Positions 1 through 31,262 of a stretch of DNA of 40,000 nucleotides are shown piece after piece. A model generated the notes under the pieces. The model saw only the letters and a program-made list of their open reading frames with translations, did not search any database and was not told the origin of the DNA. Numbering within the stretch: position 1 is the stretch's first letter; each line of letters opens with the position of its first letter. This DNA comes from Haloquadratum sp. Lineage in GTDB: Archaea; Halobacteriota; Halobacteria; Halobacteriales; Haloferacaceae. The DNA lies in assembly GCA_031580685.1 (NCBI GenBank), contig JAVLBV010000006.1:2221-42220 (forward strand). The letters run 5' to 3'. The position numbers and the translations under genes are program-made.

Positions 1-137
1 ATGCACACCACATCGAGGATGCGTCGACGGGCCCGCACCGGCGAGGCGCCGATCTGGCGGGCGATGATGGCATCACGGGCCCCCTCGAGGTGCGCACACA
101 GCTGGAACTCGAACGCCGCCTCGGTGTGGACGTCCAT
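1..137 (-). CDS. Conserved hypothetical protein, N-terminal 45 codons only (gene runs off the left edge)
   Basis: A minus-strand ATG at 137-135 overlaps the stop of the upstream ROK gene (ATGA). It reads MDVHTEAAFEFQLCAHLEGARDAIIARQIGASPVRARRRILDVVC with GC-rich third positions. It is absent from the ORF track because it is truncated. Confidence 0.4.
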   Translation of the reverse strand, partial: MDVHTEAAFEFQLCAHLEGARDAIIARQIGASPVRARRRILDVVC

Positions 138-6911: not shown

Positions 6912-8873
6912 ATGGGACAGACGCTCACGGAGAAGATCCTCGCGGACCACCTGGTCGAAGGAGAGCTCGAGCCGGGGACGGAGATCGGCATCTCGGTCGA
7001 CCAGGTCCTGACACAGGATACCACGGGGACGATGGTGTGGCTGCAGTTCGAGGCGCTGGAGCTCGATGAGGTCCAGACCGAACTTGTCGCGCAGTACTGC
7101 GACCACCAGACGTACCAGTTCGACTTCAAGAACACCGACGATCACCGCTTCCTCCGCTCTGCGGCGGGGGTCTACGGCGCGTACTTCTCGCGGCCGGGCA
7201 ACGGGATCTGCCACAACGTGCACAAGGAGAACTTCGCAGCACCGGGCAAGACCCTCCTGGGGTCGGATTCGCACACCCCGACGCCCGGCGGGTTGGGCCA
7301 GCTCGCGATCGGGGCGGGCGGCTTGGACATCTCGGTGGCGATGGGTGGGGGTGCGTACTACGTGGAGATGCCAGAGGTCGTCAACGTCCGGCTGGAGGGG
7401 GAGCTGTCGGGGTGGGCGACGGCGAAGGATGTGATCCTCGAGATGCTCCGACGGCTCTCCGTGAAGGGAGGGGTGGGGAAGGTGTTCGAGTACACCGGCC
7501 CGGGTGTGGCCACACTGAGTGTGCCCGAGCGGACGACGATCACCAACATGGGCACGGAGTTGGGTGCCACCTCGTCGATCTTCCCCACCGATGACCGCAC
7601 GCGGGAGTACCTCGCCCGACAGGGGCGTGAGGCCGAGTACGTCGAGCTTTCCGCGGACGCGGATGCGGAGTACGCAGACGAGCTCGTGATCGACCTCAGC
7701 GCACTCGAGCCGCTGATCGCGCTCCCGTCGATGCCGGACGATGTCGTCCCGGTACGGGAGGTCGTGGGCACGCCGGTCCAGCAGGTGATCGTCGGGTCGT
7801 GCACGAACGGTGGGTACGAGGACATCCTGCCGGTCGCGAAGATGCTCAAGGGACGCGAGGTCGACCGGCGCACCGATGTCGTCATCGCACCGGGCTCGAA
7901 GCAGGCGTCGGAGCTGCTCGCGCGGGAGGGGTGGACGGCGGAGCTGATGGCCGCTGGTGTGAACTTCTCAGAGGCGACCTGTGGGGCCTGCATCGGCATC
8001 GGGCACGTCCCCGCCTCGGACTCGGTCTCCCTGCGGACGTTCAACCGGAACTTCGAGGGACGCTCGGGGATCGAGGATGATGCGGTGTACCTGTGCTCAC
8101 CCGAGGTCGCCGCCGCGGCGGCGCTGACCGGGGAGATCACCGATCCCGGTGACCTCGAGGGCATCAGTCCACCGGGTGTGGAGCTCCCGAAGGCGTACGA
8201 TGGGTCGACGGTCGACATCATCACCCCGGAGGACCCCGTCGATGAGCAGCTCATCAAGGGGCCCAACATCGGCTCCGCACCGATCGGCGAGCCGATCGAG
8301 CCGGACGTCGGTGGCGAGGTGCTGCTGAAGATGGGTGACAACATCACCACCGACCACATCATCCCCGGGACGGCGGAGGTGCTGATGTACCGGTCGAACA
8401 TCGAGAAGCTCTCTGAGTTCACCCTCTCACGCGTGGATGACAGCTTCGCCGAGCGGGCGATGACCGCAGGTGGCGGCGTGCTCGTCGCCGGGGAGAACTA
8501 CGGACAGGGGTCCTCGCGGGAGCACGCGGCGATGTGTCCGCTGTATCTCGGTGTGGAGGCGGTGGTGGCGCAGTCGTTCGCTCGGATCCACAAGGCGAAC
8601 CTGATCAACTTCGGGATCATCCCCCTCGAGATCGATGCGGAGACGTACGACCAGATCGAGCAGGGCGAGTCGCTGCGCGTCGATGATGATGCGCGGGAGG
8701 CGGTCCTGGGCGGGGCGACGAGCGTGACGATCGCGGGTGAGGGCTGGGAGGCGACGGCGGAGCTGGACATCTCCGCGCGCGAGCGCGAGATCCTCGCCGC
8801 GGGTGGCAAGCTGCGGCTCACGCGGGACCAGTTCGACACCGGCGCAGGCGGGGCCGCACCGGCGGACGACTGA
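6912..8873 (+). CDS. acnA: Aconitate hydratase
   Basis: A 653-aa protein: MGQTLTEKILADHL, DQVLTQDTTGT, the Fe-S ligand context GSDSHTPT and GSCTNG, and a swivel domain GENYGQGSSREHAA. The upstream 79 codons of the track ORF are rejected because they are antisense to dut. Confidence 0.93.
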   Translation: MGQTLTEKILADHLVEGELEPGTEIGISVDQVLTQDTTGTMVWLQFEALELDEVQTELVAQYCDHQTYQFDFKNTDDHRFLRSAAGVYGAYFSRPGNGICHNVHKENFAAPGKTLLGSDSHTPTPGGLGQLAIGAGGLDISVAMGGGAYYVEMPEVVNVRLEGELSGWATAKDVILEMLRRLSVKGGVGKVFEYTGPGVATLSVPERTTITNMGTELGATSSIFPTDDRTREYLARQGREAEYVELSADADAEYADELVIDLSALEPLIALPSMPDDVVPVREVVGTPVQQVIVGSCTNGGYEDILPVAKMLKGREVDRRTDVVIAPGSKQASELLAREGWTAELMAAGVNFSEATCGACIGIGHVPASDSVSLRTFNRNFEGRSGIEDDAVYLCSPEVAAAAALTGEITDPGDLEGISPPGVELPKAYDGSTVDIITPEDPVDEQLIKGPNIGSAPIGEPIEPDVGGEVLLKMGDNITTDHIIPGTAEVLMYRSNIEKLSEFTLSRVDDSFAERAMTAGGGVLVAGENYGQGSSREHAAMCPLYLGVEAVVAQSFARIHKANLINFGIIPLEIDAETYDQIEQGESLRVDDDAREAVLGGATSVTIAGEGWEATAELDISAREREILAAGGKLRLTRDQFDTGAGGAAPADD

Positions 8874-11007: not shown

Positions 11008-11991
11008 TCACACCAGCTCCGCGAGGAGGTCGATCGCCGTCAGGGGTGTCGGTCCGAGGGGGGCACCCAGGACCACACCATCCGTGTGCTCGCGCACCGC
11101 CTCGAGCCTCGCCGCCACGCTCGCAGGCTCGCCGGCGATCGCGAACGCATCCAGCATCCGCGGGGTCACCCGCTCGAAGGCCGCCGCGTGCTCGCCCGAC
11201 GCGAGCGCCGCTTGGATCTCGGAGGCGACGTCCTCGTCGATACCGTGGCGCTCGAGCACCGGGGGCGCCGCCCCAGCTGCGATGAACGCCACCGGCGGGC
11301 GTGCGGCCGCGCGTGCAGCATCCGCATCACCGTCGATGCTCACACTCGCATACGCGTGGAGCCTGCTGTCTCCGGCGTCCGGATCCCGGTCCTGCCGGCC
11401 GATGTCGAACTGCTCACGCGCCCAGCGGAGGTCCGCCGGATGTGACCCGTTGAACAGCAGGCCATCCGCCCGCTTGCCCGCCATCCGGCACATGTGGGGC
11501 CCCTCACCACCGACGTACACCGGGATCGGCCCCTCGACGGCGTAGTTCAGGCGCACATCGGTCGCCTGGAAGCGCCCCGCATGGTCGACGGTCGCGCCGT
11601 CCCACAGCCGGCGCGCCACCTCGAACGCCTCGAGCACCGACCGCAGGTCGCGGTCGTCGGCGAGGCCCAGTCGCCCCAACACGGTGGGGTCGCCCGGGCC
11701 GATGCCGAGATGGACCCGCCCTGGTGCCACCTCGCTGAGCGTGGCGAGCTGGCTCGCCAACGTGACCGGATGCCGCTCATATGGGTTGACCACACCGGGG
11801 CCGAGACGGATGTGCTCGGTGGCCTCGAGCAGCAGCGCCGCGACGGTGACCGGGTCCCGGTTGTCGTGGTGTGAGGAGACGAACGCCGCGTCGATCCCCC
11901 CCGCCTCGGCGGCCTGCGCCCGCTCGATGAGCTGTGCGATCGGCGCATCTGGGACCAGCTCCATCCCCCATGTGAACGTCTGGTTAGCCAT
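11008..11991 (-). CDS. mer: LLM-class F420-dependent oxidoreductase, Mer-like (5,10-methylenetetrahydromethanopterin reductase homolog)
   Basis: A TIM-barrel luciferase-like sequence (FTWGMELVP, FVSSHHDNRDP, LGIGPGDP, VYVGGEGPHMCRMAGKRADGLLFNGSHP). The start at MANQTF (ATG 11991) overlaps the cofE stop by 8 nt. Confidence 0.85.
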   Translation of the reverse strand: MANQTFTWGMELVPDAPIAQLIERAQAAEAGGIDAAFVSSHHDNRDPVTVAALLLEATEHIRLGPGVVNPYERHPVTLASQLATLSEVAPGRVHLGIGPGDPTVLGRLGLADDRDLRSVLEAFEVARRLWDGATVDHAGRFQATDVRLNYAVEGPIPVYVGGEGPHMCRMAGKRADGLLFNGSHPADLRWAREQFDIGRQDRDPDAGDSRLHAYASVSIDGDADAARAAARPPVAFIAAGAAPPVLERHGIDEDVASEIQAALASGEHAAAFERVTPRMLDAFAIAGEPASVAARLEAVREHTDGVVLGAPLGPTPLTAIDLLAELV

Positions 11992-12739
11992 CGTACGTCC
12001 ATCCCTCCAGGGCCTGCCTGATAAGGTCTGTCTCAGGCGCACGGAAGTGCGCATCTGAGGCGCCGTGATCGCCCCATTCGAACCCGGTGATGACCGCCAC
12101 CGGGGTGCCGCCTGCGCCCTCGCCCATCACGAGGTTCGCCGCCGCAGCGAGCTCATCGATCACGTTCTCCACGGTCGAGCTCAGGAGGCGGTCGGAGCGG
12201 TCCGACTCGCCGCGCCAGTCACGCGCAGGGTGCAGGCCGTGCCAGCCGATCGCCACACCGCGCTGCCCGTGCCGGAAGGGCCGTCCACAGGTGTCGGTGA
12301 TGATGACGCGGTCTGTCGGCAGCCCGGCTGCGATCTGCTGGGCGCTGGCGGAGGGGTCCTCCGGGAGCAACAGCAGGTCCGCACCATCGGTGTTGGAGCG
12401 GTCGATGCCCGCGTTCACGGTGATGTGACCGAAGTGGGTCTGCGTGAGCAGGAACGGTGCCTCCAGCAGCAGTGCCGCGCTCTCACGCAGGACCGCCTCC
12501 GCGAAGCGGGGGTCTTTGGGTGAGCCGGTGACCGCTTCGAGCCGCGCGGCGATGGCGTGCGCGCGCGATGATGGCTCGTACGCCTCAAGGGCCCGCGTGC
12601 GGCCCTCGGACTTCGAGACGACGGTCGATGCGATGCAGACGACCGCATCGCTGTCGAGCGTCGCGTGGTCGGTGACGACCGCGGCGAGGTCATCGCCGGC
12701 TGCGACCGTGGGCATCCCCGCCACCGCGTCCACCTGCAT
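11984..12739 (-). CDS. cofE: Coenzyme F420-0:L-glutamate ligase
   Basis: Seen in the translation: AGDDLAAVV, VVCIASTVVSKSEGR, NAGIDRSN, ITDTCGRPFRHGQRGVAIG and ELAAAANLVMGEGAGGTPV. Start is at MQVDAVAGMP (ATG 12739). Confidence 0.88.
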   Translation of the reverse strand: MQVDAVAGMPTVAAGDDLAAVVTDHATLDSDAVVCIASTVVSKSEGRTRALEAYEPSSRAHAIAARLEAVTGSPKDPRFAEAVLRESAALLLEAPFLLTQTHFGHITVNAGIDRSNTDGADLLLLPEDPSASAQQIAAGLPTDRVIITDTCGRPFRHGQRGVAIGWHGLHPARDWRGESDRSDRLLSSTVENVIDELAAAANLVMGEGAGGTPVAVITGFEWGDHGASDAHFRAPETDLIRQALEGWTYDG

Positions 12740-12761
12740 GCAGACGGTTGGACACGGCCGG

Positions 12762-12768
12762 GTAAAAC
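12762..12768 (-). promoter_or_regulatory. TATA-like element (GTTTTAC on minus strand) upstream of cofE
   Basis: It lies 23-29 nt upstream of ATG 12739, which fits a leaderless configuration. Confidence 0.35.
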
Positions 12769-12818
12769 GGGGCCCATCCATCGACACCGCTTCAAGCACG
12801 GCGGTCTGTGCACAGCGT

Positions 12819-12882
12819 GGTGGCGATGATGAGAGTTACCCCCACCGAGCCAAGGATGACGATCACCGATCCCTGAGCCACC
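12819..12882 (+). ncRNA. Candidate box C/D guide sRNA (about 64 nt)
   Basis: The terminal stem is GGTGGC (12819-12824) paired with GCCACC (12877-12882). The C box ATGATGA is at 12826-12832 and the D box CTGA at 12873-12876. Internal boxes are D'-like CCGA (12845-12848) and C'-like AGGATGA (12853-12859) or ATGACGA (12856-12862). The guide spacers are 12 nt and 13 (or 10) nt. The element lies in a 183-nt non-coding spacer. Confidence 0.5.
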
Positions 12883-12922
12883 CTATCGTCACGGCAAAGC
12901 CACTGCGGACGTGTTCTGGTGC

Positions 12923-13246
12923 ATGCCCGTCGGCACCATCTCCGCTTCCGAGCTGCAGGCGCGACTCGAGGGGCCAGAGCCCCCGCAGGTCATCGACATC
13001 CGTCACCCCGCCGCGTACGCGCGTGGACACATCCCGGGCGCGGAGAACGTCCCGTTCGTCGACCTGATCAGCGAGATCGACGCGGTCAGCTGGGCGGACC
13101 AGATCGTCGTCGTCTGTCCCCACGGGGAGTCGTCCATGCAGGCGGTGCAGCTGATCGATGCGTACGCGGGCGTCGACGGCGAGGCGGCCGTGCTGAATCT
13201 GACCGGGGGGTACGCCGAGTGGGCGGGACCGATGGTCACCGACTAG
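12923..13246 (+). CDS. Rhodanese-like domain protein (single domain sulfurtransferase)
   Basis: It shows VIDIRHPAAYARGHIPGAENVPF and the active-site loop VVVCPHGESS. Start is at MPVGTISA (ATG 12923); the track ORF begins at an upstream GTG. Confidence 0.8.
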   Translation: MPVGTISASELQARLEGPEPPQVIDIRHPAAYARGHIPGAENVPFVDLISEIDAVSWADQIVVVCPHGESSMQAVQLIDAYAGVDGEAAVLNLTGGYAEWAGPMVTD

Positions 13247-13866
13247 ACGAACTGCCGGAGTGGGTCGCGCCGGAGTGCGACGAACCGGTCATCCAGCGCC
13301 TCACGCAGTGCCACGAGGTCACCGTGGGCCGCGGCGATGGGTGCGAACTGATCACGCCACTGCTGCCAGGGGGGTGGCAGCCCGAAGCGGTCTGCGATCG
13401 CATCCAGCTGCGCATCACGGTCATCGAGCTTGTCGCACTTGTTGACCGCGAGGATGACGAACACCCCGAGCTCGTCGAGGAACTCGTACAGCTCGATGGT
13501 GTGCGGCAGCTCCCCCCGCTCGGCATGACGGTCGATGATCTCCACGGCGGCGTTCGCATCGAGCACCAGCACCGCCGCGAGGACCGCATCCGCGTGTGAC
13601 TCGAGATACCCCACGAGGTCGGTCAGGATCGCCTCCTGCTGCTCGCGGGCGACGCCCGAGAGGAAGCCGAAGCCGGGCAGGTCGGTGAACATGAAGTCGT
13701 GCTGGGGATGGGTGTAGTGCGCGGGGGTCCGCGTCACCCCCGGCTTGCGACCCGTCTGGAAGCGGTCGCTGCCGGTCAAGCCCCGCATGATCGTCGATTT
13801 GCCCACGTTCGACCGACCCACGAAGACGACCTCCTCGTGCGGGGGGCGCTCAGCGGCCTGCATCAT
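13243..13866 (-). CDS. engB: GTP-binding protein EngB (YihA family)
   Basis: G1 is GRSNVGKST, G3 is DLPGFG and G4 is NKCD. The start ATG overlaps the NOG1 stop (ATGA). Confidence 0.85.
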   Translation of the reverse strand: MMQAAERPPHEEVVFVGRSNVGKSTIMRGLTGSDRFQTGRKPGVTRTPAHYTHPQHDFMFTDLPGFGFLSGVAREQQEAILTDLVGYLESHADAVLAAVLVLDANAAVEIIDRHAERGELPHTIELYEFLDELGVFVILAVNKCDKLDDRDAQLDAIADRFGLPPPWQQWRDQFAPIAAAHGDLVALREALDDRFVALRRDPLRQFV

Positions 13867-14837
13867 CCCTGCCGCGACGGCGGCAGCTCCGGCGTCTCCG
13901 CCACCACCCCGAGCGCCGCCGTGATCACCGCATCCACCCCCACGTCGCTCTCGATGCTCATGTTGTACGTCGCCTCGGGCATGGGGGTGACGTCCGCCTT
14001 GTTGTTCACCATCAGCACGGGTGTCGCTGTCGGCTCGAAGGTCGCCGACAGCGACCGGTGCAGCTGGCGCTGGTCCGCCAGCGGGTAGCCACAGCGCTCG
14101 GAGGCATCATAGAGGAAGACGACCACATCGGCCAGATGTGTCAGTGCGCTCACCGCCTGGTCCTCGATCGCGTTGCGGTCGGCGGGGGGGCGGTCCAACA
14201 GCCCCGGGGTGTCGACCAGCTGCACCGGGTGTCGATCCAGCTCGAGGTGGCCCACATGGATCGTCGTCGTCGTGAACGGGTACGCGGCGGTCGGCGTGTC
14301 TGCCCGCGTCAGGGCGTTGACGAAGGAGGTCTTCCCCACGTTCGGGTACCCCGCGACCACCACCGTCGGGTGCTCAGGCCGGATGTCCGGCAGTCGCCGG
14401 AGCGTGTCGCGAGCCGCCCCGACCGCCCGGAGGTCGTCCCGCACCGACTCGACCACATCGGCGAAGCGCGCGAACGCCTGCTTGCGGTAGCGGCGGGCGG
14501 TGGCGACCTCGGTGCGGCGGAGTCGGGGCTGGTACTCACGTCGGAGCCGGCCGACCTGAGTCGCCGCCCACTGCGTGTGTGCGAGCTGCTGTCGGAGCGT
14601 GTCGACACCGACCAGCGCATCGGCCATCTCGTAGTAGAAGGGGTCGACCTCGTCGAAATCCGGCCACACCCGCCCCACCTGCTCGAGGTTGTCCGACAGG
14701 ATCGATGCCGCGGTCTGCAGCATCGACTGCTGGGCCAACAGCCCCTGCTTGGACCGCCCCGCACGTGCGGCGCGGCTGAACGCCTTCTCGATCAGCTCGG
14801 AGGCGCGAGGGGTCGTCGGGATGGACTCGAAGTACAT
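13863..14837 (-). CDS. NOG1-family GTPase (nucleolar GTP-binding protein 1 homolog)
   Basis: It has an N-terminal NOG1 helical region (MYFESIPTTPRASELIEKAF). G1 is GYPNVGKTS, followed by YPFTT, G3 DTPGLLDR and G4 NKAD. Start is at ATG 14837. Confidence 0.85.
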   Translation of the reverse strand: MYFESIPTTPRASELIEKAFSRAARAGRSKQGLLAQQSMLQTAASILSDNLEQVGRVWPDFDEVDPFYYEMADALVGVDTLRQQLAHTQWAATQVGRLRREYQPRLRRTEVATARRYRKQAFARFADVVESVRDDLRAVGAARDTLRRLPDIRPEHPTVVVAGYPNVGKTSFVNALTRADTPTAAYPFTTTTIHVGHLELDRHPVQLVDTPGLLDRPPADRNAIEDQAVSALTHLADVVVFLYDASERCGYPLADQRQLHRSLSATFEPTATPVLMVNNKADVTPMPEATYNMSIESDVGVDAVITAALGVVAETPELPPSRQG

Positions 14838-14903
14838 GGGGATCGCCGGTGTGCGTCGGCAGTATGACACACCCAGCGCCTCAGGCTTCTATACCTGTCG
14901 AGG

Positions 14904-31110: not shown

Positions 31111-31117
31111 ATACGGA

Positions 31118-31202
31118 TGCGGGGGATGGGATTTGAACCCACGAACCCCTTCGGGAGCGGATCTTAAGTCCGCCGCTTTTGGCCAGGCTCAGCCACCCCC
31201 GC
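31118..31202 (-). tRNA. tRNA-Leu (anticodon UAA)
   Basis: I folded it by hand as an 85-nt cloverleaf. The acceptor stem is GCGGGGG/CCCCCGC with discriminator A. The anticodon stem is GCGGA/UCCGC with loop CUUAAGA. It has a long variable arm (type II) and a T-loop UUCAAAU. There is no intron and no encoded CCA. Confidence 0.93.
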
Positions 31203-31262
31203 ACCACCGGCGTCCGCACCCAGCGTTCGCCAGGCGCTCAAAAGTAGCTTCGCCTCGGTCGG

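Follow-up and report, generated by a model that had tools for sequence, protein, structure and literature searches.

Within the 40,000-nt stretch of a Haloquadratum sp. contig analyzed here (the window), positions 12819-12882 of the forward strand very probably represent an independently transcribed gene for an archaeal box C/D small RNA (sRNA) of approximately 64 nt, belonging to a haloarchaeal family whose predicted role is to direct the 2'-O-methylation of a nucleotide in 23S ribosomal RNA (rRNA) helix 69. The evidence consists of the architecture of the element, its membership in the family, covariation of its terminal stem, a unique complement in rRNA, a conserved promoter-like signal and the drift of its second spacer, here called the D spacer. 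The identification is correct; it adds a new locus to a known family and would be unsurprising to a specialist.

Architecture of the element

Read directly from the sequence, the 64-nt element is GGUGGC-G-AUGAUGA-GAGUUACCCCCA-CCGA-GCCAAGGA-UGACGA-UCACCGAUCC-CUGA-GCCACC, where GCCAAGGAUGACGAUCACCGAUCC is the stretch between the D' box CCGA and the D box CUGA. It has the C and D boxes, the terminal stem in kink-turn (K-turn) register and the D' and C' boxes with an intervening loop in the range of 3-9 nt that are expected of a box C/D sRNA, and both of its spacers (12 nt between C and D', 10 nt between C' and D) lie within the guide range of approximately 10-12 nt. The unpaired G at 12825, together with the R and U of the C box, would form the 3-nt bulge of a K-turn. 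The C' box UGACGA departs from UGAUGA at one position, yet this is the majority form of the family, being present in 77 of 118 copies.

The preliminary description of this DNA had proposed a box C/D sRNA with K-turn geometry at this locus, and the proposal is borne out by the full family architecture and by the match to the family model, both described below; its coordinates for boxes, stem and spacers likewise agree with a direct reading of the sequence. It had given AGGAUGA as the primary C' box and UGACGA as an alternative register, and the family register decides for the latter. With this C' box the D spacer measures 10 nt instead of 13 nt, so that the 12-nt D' guide and the alternative 10-nt D guide of that description are retained and its 13-nt D guide is not. 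The AGGAUGA register with a 13-nt guide is ruled out, as the family has UGAYGA fixed 8 nt after D'.

Membership in a known family and stem covariation

The element is a member of the already described haloarchaeal family of helix-69 guides. Grosjean et al. 2008 (BMC Genomics 9:470, PMC2584109) presented in their Additional file 7 a C/D sRNA family predicted for Gm1934 of Haloferax volcanii and Gm1950 of Haloarcula marismortui, in which six haloarchaea, several methanogens and Pyrococcus (sR41) share this architecture. The six haloarchaeal entries are composed of GGUGGCG-A, UGAYGA, NN(N)GUUACCCCCN, CNNA, GCCCCUUG, UGAYGA, approximately 10 nt, CYGA and GCCACC. The window element agrees with this layout at every position, which sets its C' box as UGACGA (12857-12862) and its D spacer as 10 nt (12863-12872), and positions 12835-12851 contain the D' guide core GUUACCCCC of the family with CNNA and GCC after it. 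The same register of C' is also given by alignments to the Rfam model sR1 and to the covariance model R1 introduced below.

For a wider view of the family, one genome per GTDB species was scanned with the pattern GGCTNNGNGGGGGTAACN{2,3}TCRTCAY, the reverse complement of the C box, guide, D' box and GCC, which leaves the stem, C' box, D spacer and D box unconstrained and which the window itself matches. At least 120 loci were identified, all in Halobacteria among the matches listed and spread over dozens of genera, and the full architecture was present in 118 of the 121 elements that were parsed from the window and these matches. Among the 118 copies, the C' box is UGAYGA in 108 and the D box is CYGA in 117, and the total length is 63-67 nt. 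The terminal stem occurs as GGUGGC/GCCACC (60 copies), GGCGGC/GCCGCC (36), GGCGAC/GUCGCC (11), GGUGGU/ACCACC (3), UGCGGC/GCCGCA (2) and GACGGC/GCCGUC (1). In an alignment of 113 sequences this stem is 99.7% paired, with two-sided (compensatory) changes in five of the six pairs, and covariation of this extent was reached by none of 500 shuffles and in no slid register. The covariance model R1, which was built from the 113 family sequences with the window left out, has a single match in the window, at exactly 12819-12882 on the forward strand and over its full length (1-65), with 62.9 bits and an E value of about 1e-14; the next best score is 16 bits. Conservation of the boxes and the stem among homologues, which had been proposed as a check, is observed, as the boxes are kept and the stem covaries over the 113 sequences.

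Relatives of the locus were also chosen by the protein product of the adjacent gene cofE alone, without the use of an RNA pattern, so that this selection is free of the bias of the scan. Contigs with cofE 87, 84 and 82% identical to that of the window carry the sRNA in the same spacer, with 65.7-66.6 bits, and their stem, C box, 12-nt D' guide, D' box, C' box and D box are 100% identical to those of the window, while the spacer between promoter and start and the distal flank diverge. The organism belongs to an uncultured, Haloferacales-like lineage, and the best named matches of the window cofE are from Halorarum, at 66-67% identity. No copy of the sRNA was found within 2.5 kb of cofE in L251 (Halorarum halobium) or L252 (Haloferax sp.), and the linkage of the sRNA to cofE is therefore common but not universal.

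A few copies in the scan are atypical. In a metagenome-assembled genome of Halobacteriales (L103, approximately 17-110, forward strand) the D spacer extends over about 37 nt before CUGA-GCCGUC, and L007 (approximately 7488-7560, forward strand) retains only the 5' half (stem, C box, guide, D' box and GCCCC), beyond which the sequence is A+T-rich; this copy seems to be disrupted. A subgroup consisting of L017, L045, L081 (Halorutilales) and L101 has the stems UGCGGC/GCCGCA or GACGGC/GCCGUC and the internal sequence GCCCGAGYGUGAAYGA, with a C' box that is not a clean UGAYGA.

Comparison with chance and with Rfam

The window has a G+C content of 68% and contains 23 RUGAUGA heptamers on its two strands, only one of which (12826-12832) combines a CUGA 35-75 nt downstream with a terminal stem that is in K-turn register and at least 4 bp long; the statement of the preliminary description that no other RUGAUGA in the window shows the full context is thus upheld. 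None of 300 shuffled windows yielded a candidate with a 6-bp stem. At an E-value threshold, 16 C/D families of Rfam align to 12819-12883 over their full model length, all below their gathering scores, with E values from 5e-7 to 4e-3; the best is sR1 with 33.1 bits (gathering score 45) and an E value of 5e-7. Many such sub-threshold matches are the pattern expected of a C/D RNA with unrelated guides. No Rfam family reaches its gathering score at 12819-12882, and within the window only a tRNA does. The designation as an unannotated candidate accordingly holds insofar as no Rfam model reaches its threshold; the implied novelty does not, since the family was already described in 2008. In single-sequence folding, the minimum free energy structure retains the terminal stem with a z-score of -2.1 and the centroid structure differs, a calculation from which little information is expected for an RNA scaffolded by proteins.

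The tRNA in question is an 89-nt tRNA-Leu(UAA) at 31115-31203 on the reverse strand, the only above-threshold Rfam match in the window, and it has no complementarity to either guide.

Predicted target in helix 69

Six rRNA operons were compared with the element, four of them named (Halorubrum, Halomicrobium, Halococcus and Natrinema) and two metagenomic. Guide bases 12834-12843 (AGUUACCCCC) have exactly one perfect 10-bp complement in each operon (6/6), located in helix 69 of the 23S rRNA, where the context is ...AACGGC-GGGGGUAACU-AUGACCC.... In the target 5'-C-GGGG*G-UAACU-3', the fourth G of the run pairs with C12840, the fifth nucleotide upstream of D'. We take the corresponding E. coli (Escherichia coli) sequence GGCCGUAACU to be 1906-1915, which aligns the fourth G of the haloarchaeal run with C1909. 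The site is widespread, as the exact 29-mer GGGGGTAACTATGACCCTCTTAAGGTAGC is present in at least 120 metagenomic contigs, with a C 5' of the G run wherever upstream sequence is available. The contigs with this 29-mer that were examined are archaeal large subunit rRNA according to Rfam, and one of them (L185) carries a complete 23S rRNA with 91.8% identity to that of a plasmid-borne rRNA operon of Halorubrum.

The modification expected at this site has been mapped in another haloarchaeon. Three ribose methylations were recorded in the 23S rRNA of H. marismortui, including Gm1950 (E. coli 1909) in helix 69, which was assigned to 'aFib + sRNA' (PMC2584109), and the 2'-O-methylated nucleotides reported in haloarchaeal rRNA are Gm1950, Um2587 and Gm2588 only (PMC2584109). 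For the haloarchaeal helix-69 guide the duplex 5'-CGGGGmGUAAC-3' was drawn (PMC2584109), and its Gm is the base addressed by the fifth nucleotide upstream of D' (N+5) in the window element. The complementarity of the D' guide to the 5' half of the helix-69 loop had been noticed before, and it recurs as one perfect site per haloarchaeal 23S rRNA tested; the suggested N+5 target equivalent to E. coli 1909 agrees with the alignment of the fourth G with C1909, and Gm1950 of H. marismortui, also named there, is indeed recorded in PMC2584109, with the same sRNA family in Additional file 7. The literal target sequence had to be amended, as the rRNA contains CGGGGGUAACU and not UGGGGGUAACU: the G run and the GUAACU part are correct, and the U at the 5' end is not, the rRNA having a C there. 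That this sRNA would be the cause of the Gm equivalent to position 1909 is a prediction dating from 2008, and it is very well supported. A later paper cites the study of the Halobacterium salinarum C/D ribonucleoprotein (RNP) by Weisel et al. 2010 for the tRNA-Trp intron and not for the helix-69 sRNA.

Several points weigh against this interpretation. The loop between D' and C' departs from the family consensus GCCCCKUG, as discussed below. Position 1 of the guide (A12844) is mismatched, with A opposite C at a position that varies in the family (A, G, U, C), and therefore the duplex comprises 10 bp (guide positions 2-11) and not 11. The conservation of the D' guide in the set of at least 120 species partly follows from the search pattern, and only the four relatives anchored on cofE are free of this bias. 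The organism's own 23S rRNA and its genes for fibrillarin, Nop5 and L7Ae lie outside the window. Finally, no experiment tying any family member to the Gm was found in the searchable literature, and the function therefore rests on complementarity and on a modification mapped in another species.

Proposed mechanism

In archaeal C/D RNPs, L7Ae binds to the terminal K-turn and the internal K-loop, and a Nop5 dimer and two fibrillarins assemble. For the window element, the 6-bp stem and the C and D boxes would form the K-turn, and CCGA, the 8-nt loop and UGACGA would form the K-loop; L7Ae would bind both motifs, on which Nop5 and fibrillarin would assemble. The guide bases AGUUACCCCC (12834-12843) would then pair with helix 69 of the nascent 23S rRNA at 5'-GGGGGUAACU-3', and the rRNA base opposite the fifth nucleotide upstream of D' would receive a methyl group from fibrillarin at its 2'-OH. 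The methylated base would be the fourth G of the run, corresponding to E. coli 1909, Gm1950 of H. marismortui and Gm1934 of H. volcanii, and the 10-nt D spacer most likely has no role beyond maintaining the two-fold architecture. Transcription of the gene, assembly of the RNP and methylation are predicted for this organism. In H. volcanii, the RNP genes are HVO_2737, HVO_1670 and HVO_1669 (PMC2584109).

Evolution of the D spacer and of the K-loop

The D spacer UCACCGAUCC shows no conserved complement. Its complement GGAUCGGUGA has 8 matches in the six rRNA operons as compared with a mean of 4.6 for shuffled sequences, a count that 14% of the shuffles reach, and no conserved site for it was found in these operons. 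Two matches lie just upstream of the 23S rRNA (in Halococcus and Halomicrobium); their sites are not homologous, and one is situated at the 3' end of a tRNA. No complement of the D spacer was found in the tRNA-Leu(UAA) of the window, and its matches across the window are at chance level. The preliminary description had been unable to identify a target for the D guide, and the same outcome was obtained here for the rRNA operons, the window and the tRNA-Leu.

In the family as a whole, the D spacer is hypervariable, with a length of 9-12 nt (9-10 nt in 97 of the 118 copies) and 102 distinct 9-mers, and a comparison of the 102 distinct D spacers with the rRNA operons revealed no shared second target, that is, no site with more than two near-identical guides. 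Among the relatives found through cofE, the D spacer is UGAUCAAUCC, UCACCGAAUU or UAACCCAUC as compared with UCACCGAUCC in the window; in these genomes, with 82-87% cofE identity, 2-4 of its 10 positions are changed and its length varies by one nucleotide. As the D spacer drifts between relatives in which the other parts are identical, the D half evolves like unconstrained sequence of constrained length. The D spacer is probably an orphan guide that acts only as a spacer.

The loop between D' and C' shows a different kind of variation. In approximately 96 of the 118 copies it is GCCCCKUG, and in the clade of the window it is GCCAAGGA or GCCUCAGA, with the length of 8 nt kept. We treat this difference as a clade variant; the authors of PMC2584109 did not state GCCCCKUG as a defining feature. 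No complement of GCCCCKUG or of GCCAAGGA was found near helix 69. The conservation of GCCCCKUG is far above the apparent need of a K-loop, and CAAGG in the loop of the window clade is the reverse complement of the consensus CCUUG. One speculative scenario, which we consider unlikely, is that this single-guide C/D RNA is retained throughout the class as its only rRNA methylation guide, that its D half has decayed to a neutral spacer, and that GCCCCKUG, which is replaced only in the uncultured clade of the window, has a second function (a protein contact or a pairing during 50S assembly) that was lost or rewired there.

Genomic context and promoter-like signals

The features of the locus are collected in Table 1. 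In 116 loci aligned on the first base of the stem, A and T account for 0.68-0.87 of the bases at -29 to -26, where T predominates, and for approximately 0.7 at -11/-10, against a background of approximately 0.3, and positions +2 to +4 after the stem are approximately 50% T. We take the rise at -11/-10 to be the haloarchaeal WW element. Together, the TATA-like peak and the WW element would place the start of transcription within about one base of the stem. The window has TTCAA at -28 to -24, and the surrounding CTTCAAG block is conserved in the relatives L246 and L250. The block immediately downstream of the stem, CTATCGTCACGGCAAAGC, may correspond to the 3' end of the sRNA and/or to the promoter of the rhodanese gene.

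Table 1. Coordinates of the sRNA element, of its flanking signals and of the adjacent genes in the window.
Feature	Position	Strand	Remarks
TATA-like element CTTCAAG	12790-12796	+	-29 to -23 from the first stem base; putative promoter
Terminal stem, 5' strand GGUGGC	12819-12824	+	Pairs with 12877-12882
Unpaired G	12825	+	Family: G 71, A 25, C 18, U 4; 3' side without compensating change
C box AUGAUGA	12826-12832	+	Family consensus RUGAYGA; box included in the collecting pattern
D' guide GAGUUACCCCCA, 12 nt	12833-12844	+	12834-12843 complementary to 23S 5'-GGGGGUAACU-3'; N+5 nucleotide C12840
D' box CCGA	12845-12848	+	Family: CCGA 63, CUGA 30, CUCA 16, CAGA 6
D'-C' loop (K-loop) GCCAAGGA, 8 nt	12849-12856	+	Family length kept, family sequence not kept
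C' box UGACGA	12857-12862	+	Family: 8 nt after D'; UGACGA 77, UGAUGA 31; absent from the collecting pattern
D spacer UCACCGAUCC, 10 nt	12863-12872	+	rRNA and tRNA complements at the level of shuffled guides
D box CUGA	12873-12876	+	Family: CCGA 92, CUGA 25; absent from the collecting pattern
Terminal stem, 3' strand GCCACC	12877-12882	+	Covaries with 12819-12824
Conserved block CTATCGTCACGGCAAAGC	12883-12900	+	Near-invariant in the window, L246, L248 and L250; sequence beyond diverges
cofE (F420-0:gamma-glutamyl ligase)	11984-12739	-	PF01996; homologues named cofE; divergent from the sRNA
Rhodanese-domain gene, 107 aa	12923-13246	+	PF00581; 40 nt downstream of the sRNA, same strand

The flanking genes had been named as cofE and rhodanese in the preliminary description, in agreement with the domains PF01996 and PF00581, and both genes were called on an identical metagenomic contig (ENA ERZ926644 k127_16379). 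Dozens of family loci have cofE upstream in divergent orientation and a rhodanese gene and/or a gene for a 207-aa GTPase downstream, although this synteny is not universal.

The 183-bp spacer between the two genes (12740-12922) appears to contain three promoter-like blocks that are conserved in the relatives. Of these, CTTCAAG at 12790-12796 would belong to the sRNA. A second, GGTAAAAC at 12761-12768, corresponds to GTTTTACC on the reverse strand, approximately 27 nt from the ATG of cofE, and another, GGCAAAGC at 12893-12900, lies approximately 27 nt before the ATG of the rhodanese gene. Since such blocks are found at approximately 27 nt from both start codons, it is suggested that neither mRNA has a leader. 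Beyond the rhodanese gene, at 13243-14870 on the reverse strand, and also in L121 and L246-L250, there is a conserved group of genes of the ribosome-biogenesis type, for a 207-aa GTPase (MMR_HSR1), a NOG1-family GTPase and a Ribo_biogen_C protein (PF04034), and in many genomes the rRNA-modification guide therefore adjoins ribosome-assembly factors. Among the open reading frames (ORFs) in the region, a 207-codon ORF at 12444-13067 on the forward strand, which runs antisense through cofE and over the whole sRNA, was not called by the metagenome gene caller and is most likely a spurious ORF of high-GC sequence, and the frame of a 348-aa ORF at 11008-12054 on the reverse strand was probably called too long.

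Alternative explanations

The possibility that short motifs have come together by chance in a GC-rich spacer, or that the element is a relic in decay and no longer expressed, derives from the shortness of the individual boxes and from the atypical K-loop of the window element. It is effectively refuted, with a probability close to nil, by the stem covariation over 113 sequences, by the family model with its E value of about 1e-14 and the lack of a comparable candidate in 300 shuffles, and by the relatives in which the functional parts are identical despite the divergence of the surrounding spacer. A cis-acting leader of the rhodanese mRNA, in which L7Ae bound to the K-turn 40 nt ahead of the start codon would control translation, would be in keeping with the location of the element, which in the window and in close relatives precedes the rhodanese ATG by only 40 nt on the same strand, and the binding of L7Ae to mRNA K-turns has been proposed in archaea (PMC5539422). 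However, a rhodanese gene is located downstream in approximately 15 family loci, mostly on the opposite strand, and most family loci have their downstream gene on the opposite strand or have a different gene there, for instance that of the GTPase, which disfavors a leader function; some genomes even carry the sRNA away from this locus entirely. A leader would also leave no role for the invariant D' guide and its unique rRNA complement, and GGCAAAGC before the rhodanese ATG is consistent with a promoter of that gene's own. We therefore regard a leader as very improbable.

A somewhat less remote, though still improbable, alternative retains the C/D sRNA and makes it a true double guide, with UCACCGAUCC also directing methylation of the C of 5'-GGAUC*GGUGA-3' in another RNA of the organism, such as a tRNA, its own rRNA or an mRNA. 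A second active site could form, given that the C' and D boxes are intact and conserved, and for this organism the comparison was limited to a single tRNA. Against this stand the absence of a conserved complement in the six operons, where the number of matches is equaled by 14% of the shuffles, the non-homologous positions of the two matches near the 23S rRNA, and the lack of a complement in the tRNA-Leu of the window together with the chance level of matches elsewhere in it. In addition, the D spacer drifts between close relatives in which all other functional parts are identical, and across the family it is hypervariable and mostly 9-10 nt long (97/118). Archaeal C/D guides work best at approximately 12 nt. 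The three 2'-O-methylated nucleotides reported in haloarchaeal rRNA (PMC2584109) likewise offer nothing beyond Gm1950, Um2587 and Gm2588 for a second guide. The single guide directed to helix 69 is thus the preferred interpretation of the element.

Comparison with other archaeal C/D guides

The closest counterpart is the haloarchaeal Gm1934/Gm1950 guide (PMC2584109), with which the element shares the 6-7 bp GGYGRC stem, the unpaired nucleotide, RUGAYGA, NN(N)GUUACCCCCN, CNNA, the 8-nt loop, UGAYGA, the spacer of approximately 10 nt, CYGA and the closing stem, as well as the rRNA target and the N+5 position; the neighborhood of cofE, rhodanese and GTPase genes is common to many members. The window element differs from this family in its loop GCCAAGGA in place of the near-invariant GCCCCKUG and in its C box AUGAUGA, which is found in only 17 of 118 copies, and its D spacer is unique, as in nearly every species. 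Pyrococcus sR41 and its homologues in methanogens also have a D' guide proposed for the equivalent position of helix 69 (PMC2584109), but the Pyrococcus guide CGUUAGCCACG is unlike that of the window (PMC2584109), and no match to sR41 was present among the Rfam matches to the element at the E-value threshold. The D guides of Methanococcus and Pyrococcus, in contrast to the D spacer of the window, are 12 nt long and conserved within each group (PMC2584109), and they are probably functional second guides. The loops differ as well, with 3-4 nt in Pyrococcus and Thermococcus and a much greater length in Methanococcus, as compared with the 8 nt of haloarchaea (PMC2584109).

The haloarchaeal tRNA-Trp intron (Cm34 and Um39) and sR-tMet (Cm34) belong to the very small number of C/D guides in haloarchaea and rely on the same RNP machinery; both target tRNA, whereas the window sRNA targets rRNA by prediction, and the tRNA-Trp guide is intron-encoded and not free-standing. 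Rfam families such as sR1 (RF01152), snoPyro_CD (RF00095), sR55 (RF01307) and others have the boxes and their spacing in common with the element, but their guides are unrelated. No Rfam family represents the helix-69 guide sRNA, and the gene is missing from automated annotation because Rfam lacks such a model.

Implications for haloarchaeal rRNA modification

Helix 69 forms the inter-subunit bridge B2a and contacts tRNA. The haloarchaeal helix-69 sRNA is the only rRNA-directed C/D guide proposed for Halobacteria, which carry only three ribose methylations in their rRNA. For the window, the present analysis fills a gap in the gene annotation. At least 120 haloarchaeal species carry a member of the family, in which the stem covaries and a promoter signature is seen, and the alignment obtained here could seed a family of the Rfam type. 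As its D half behaves like a neutral spacer, the sRNA would provide a natural example of a one-sided C/D guide.

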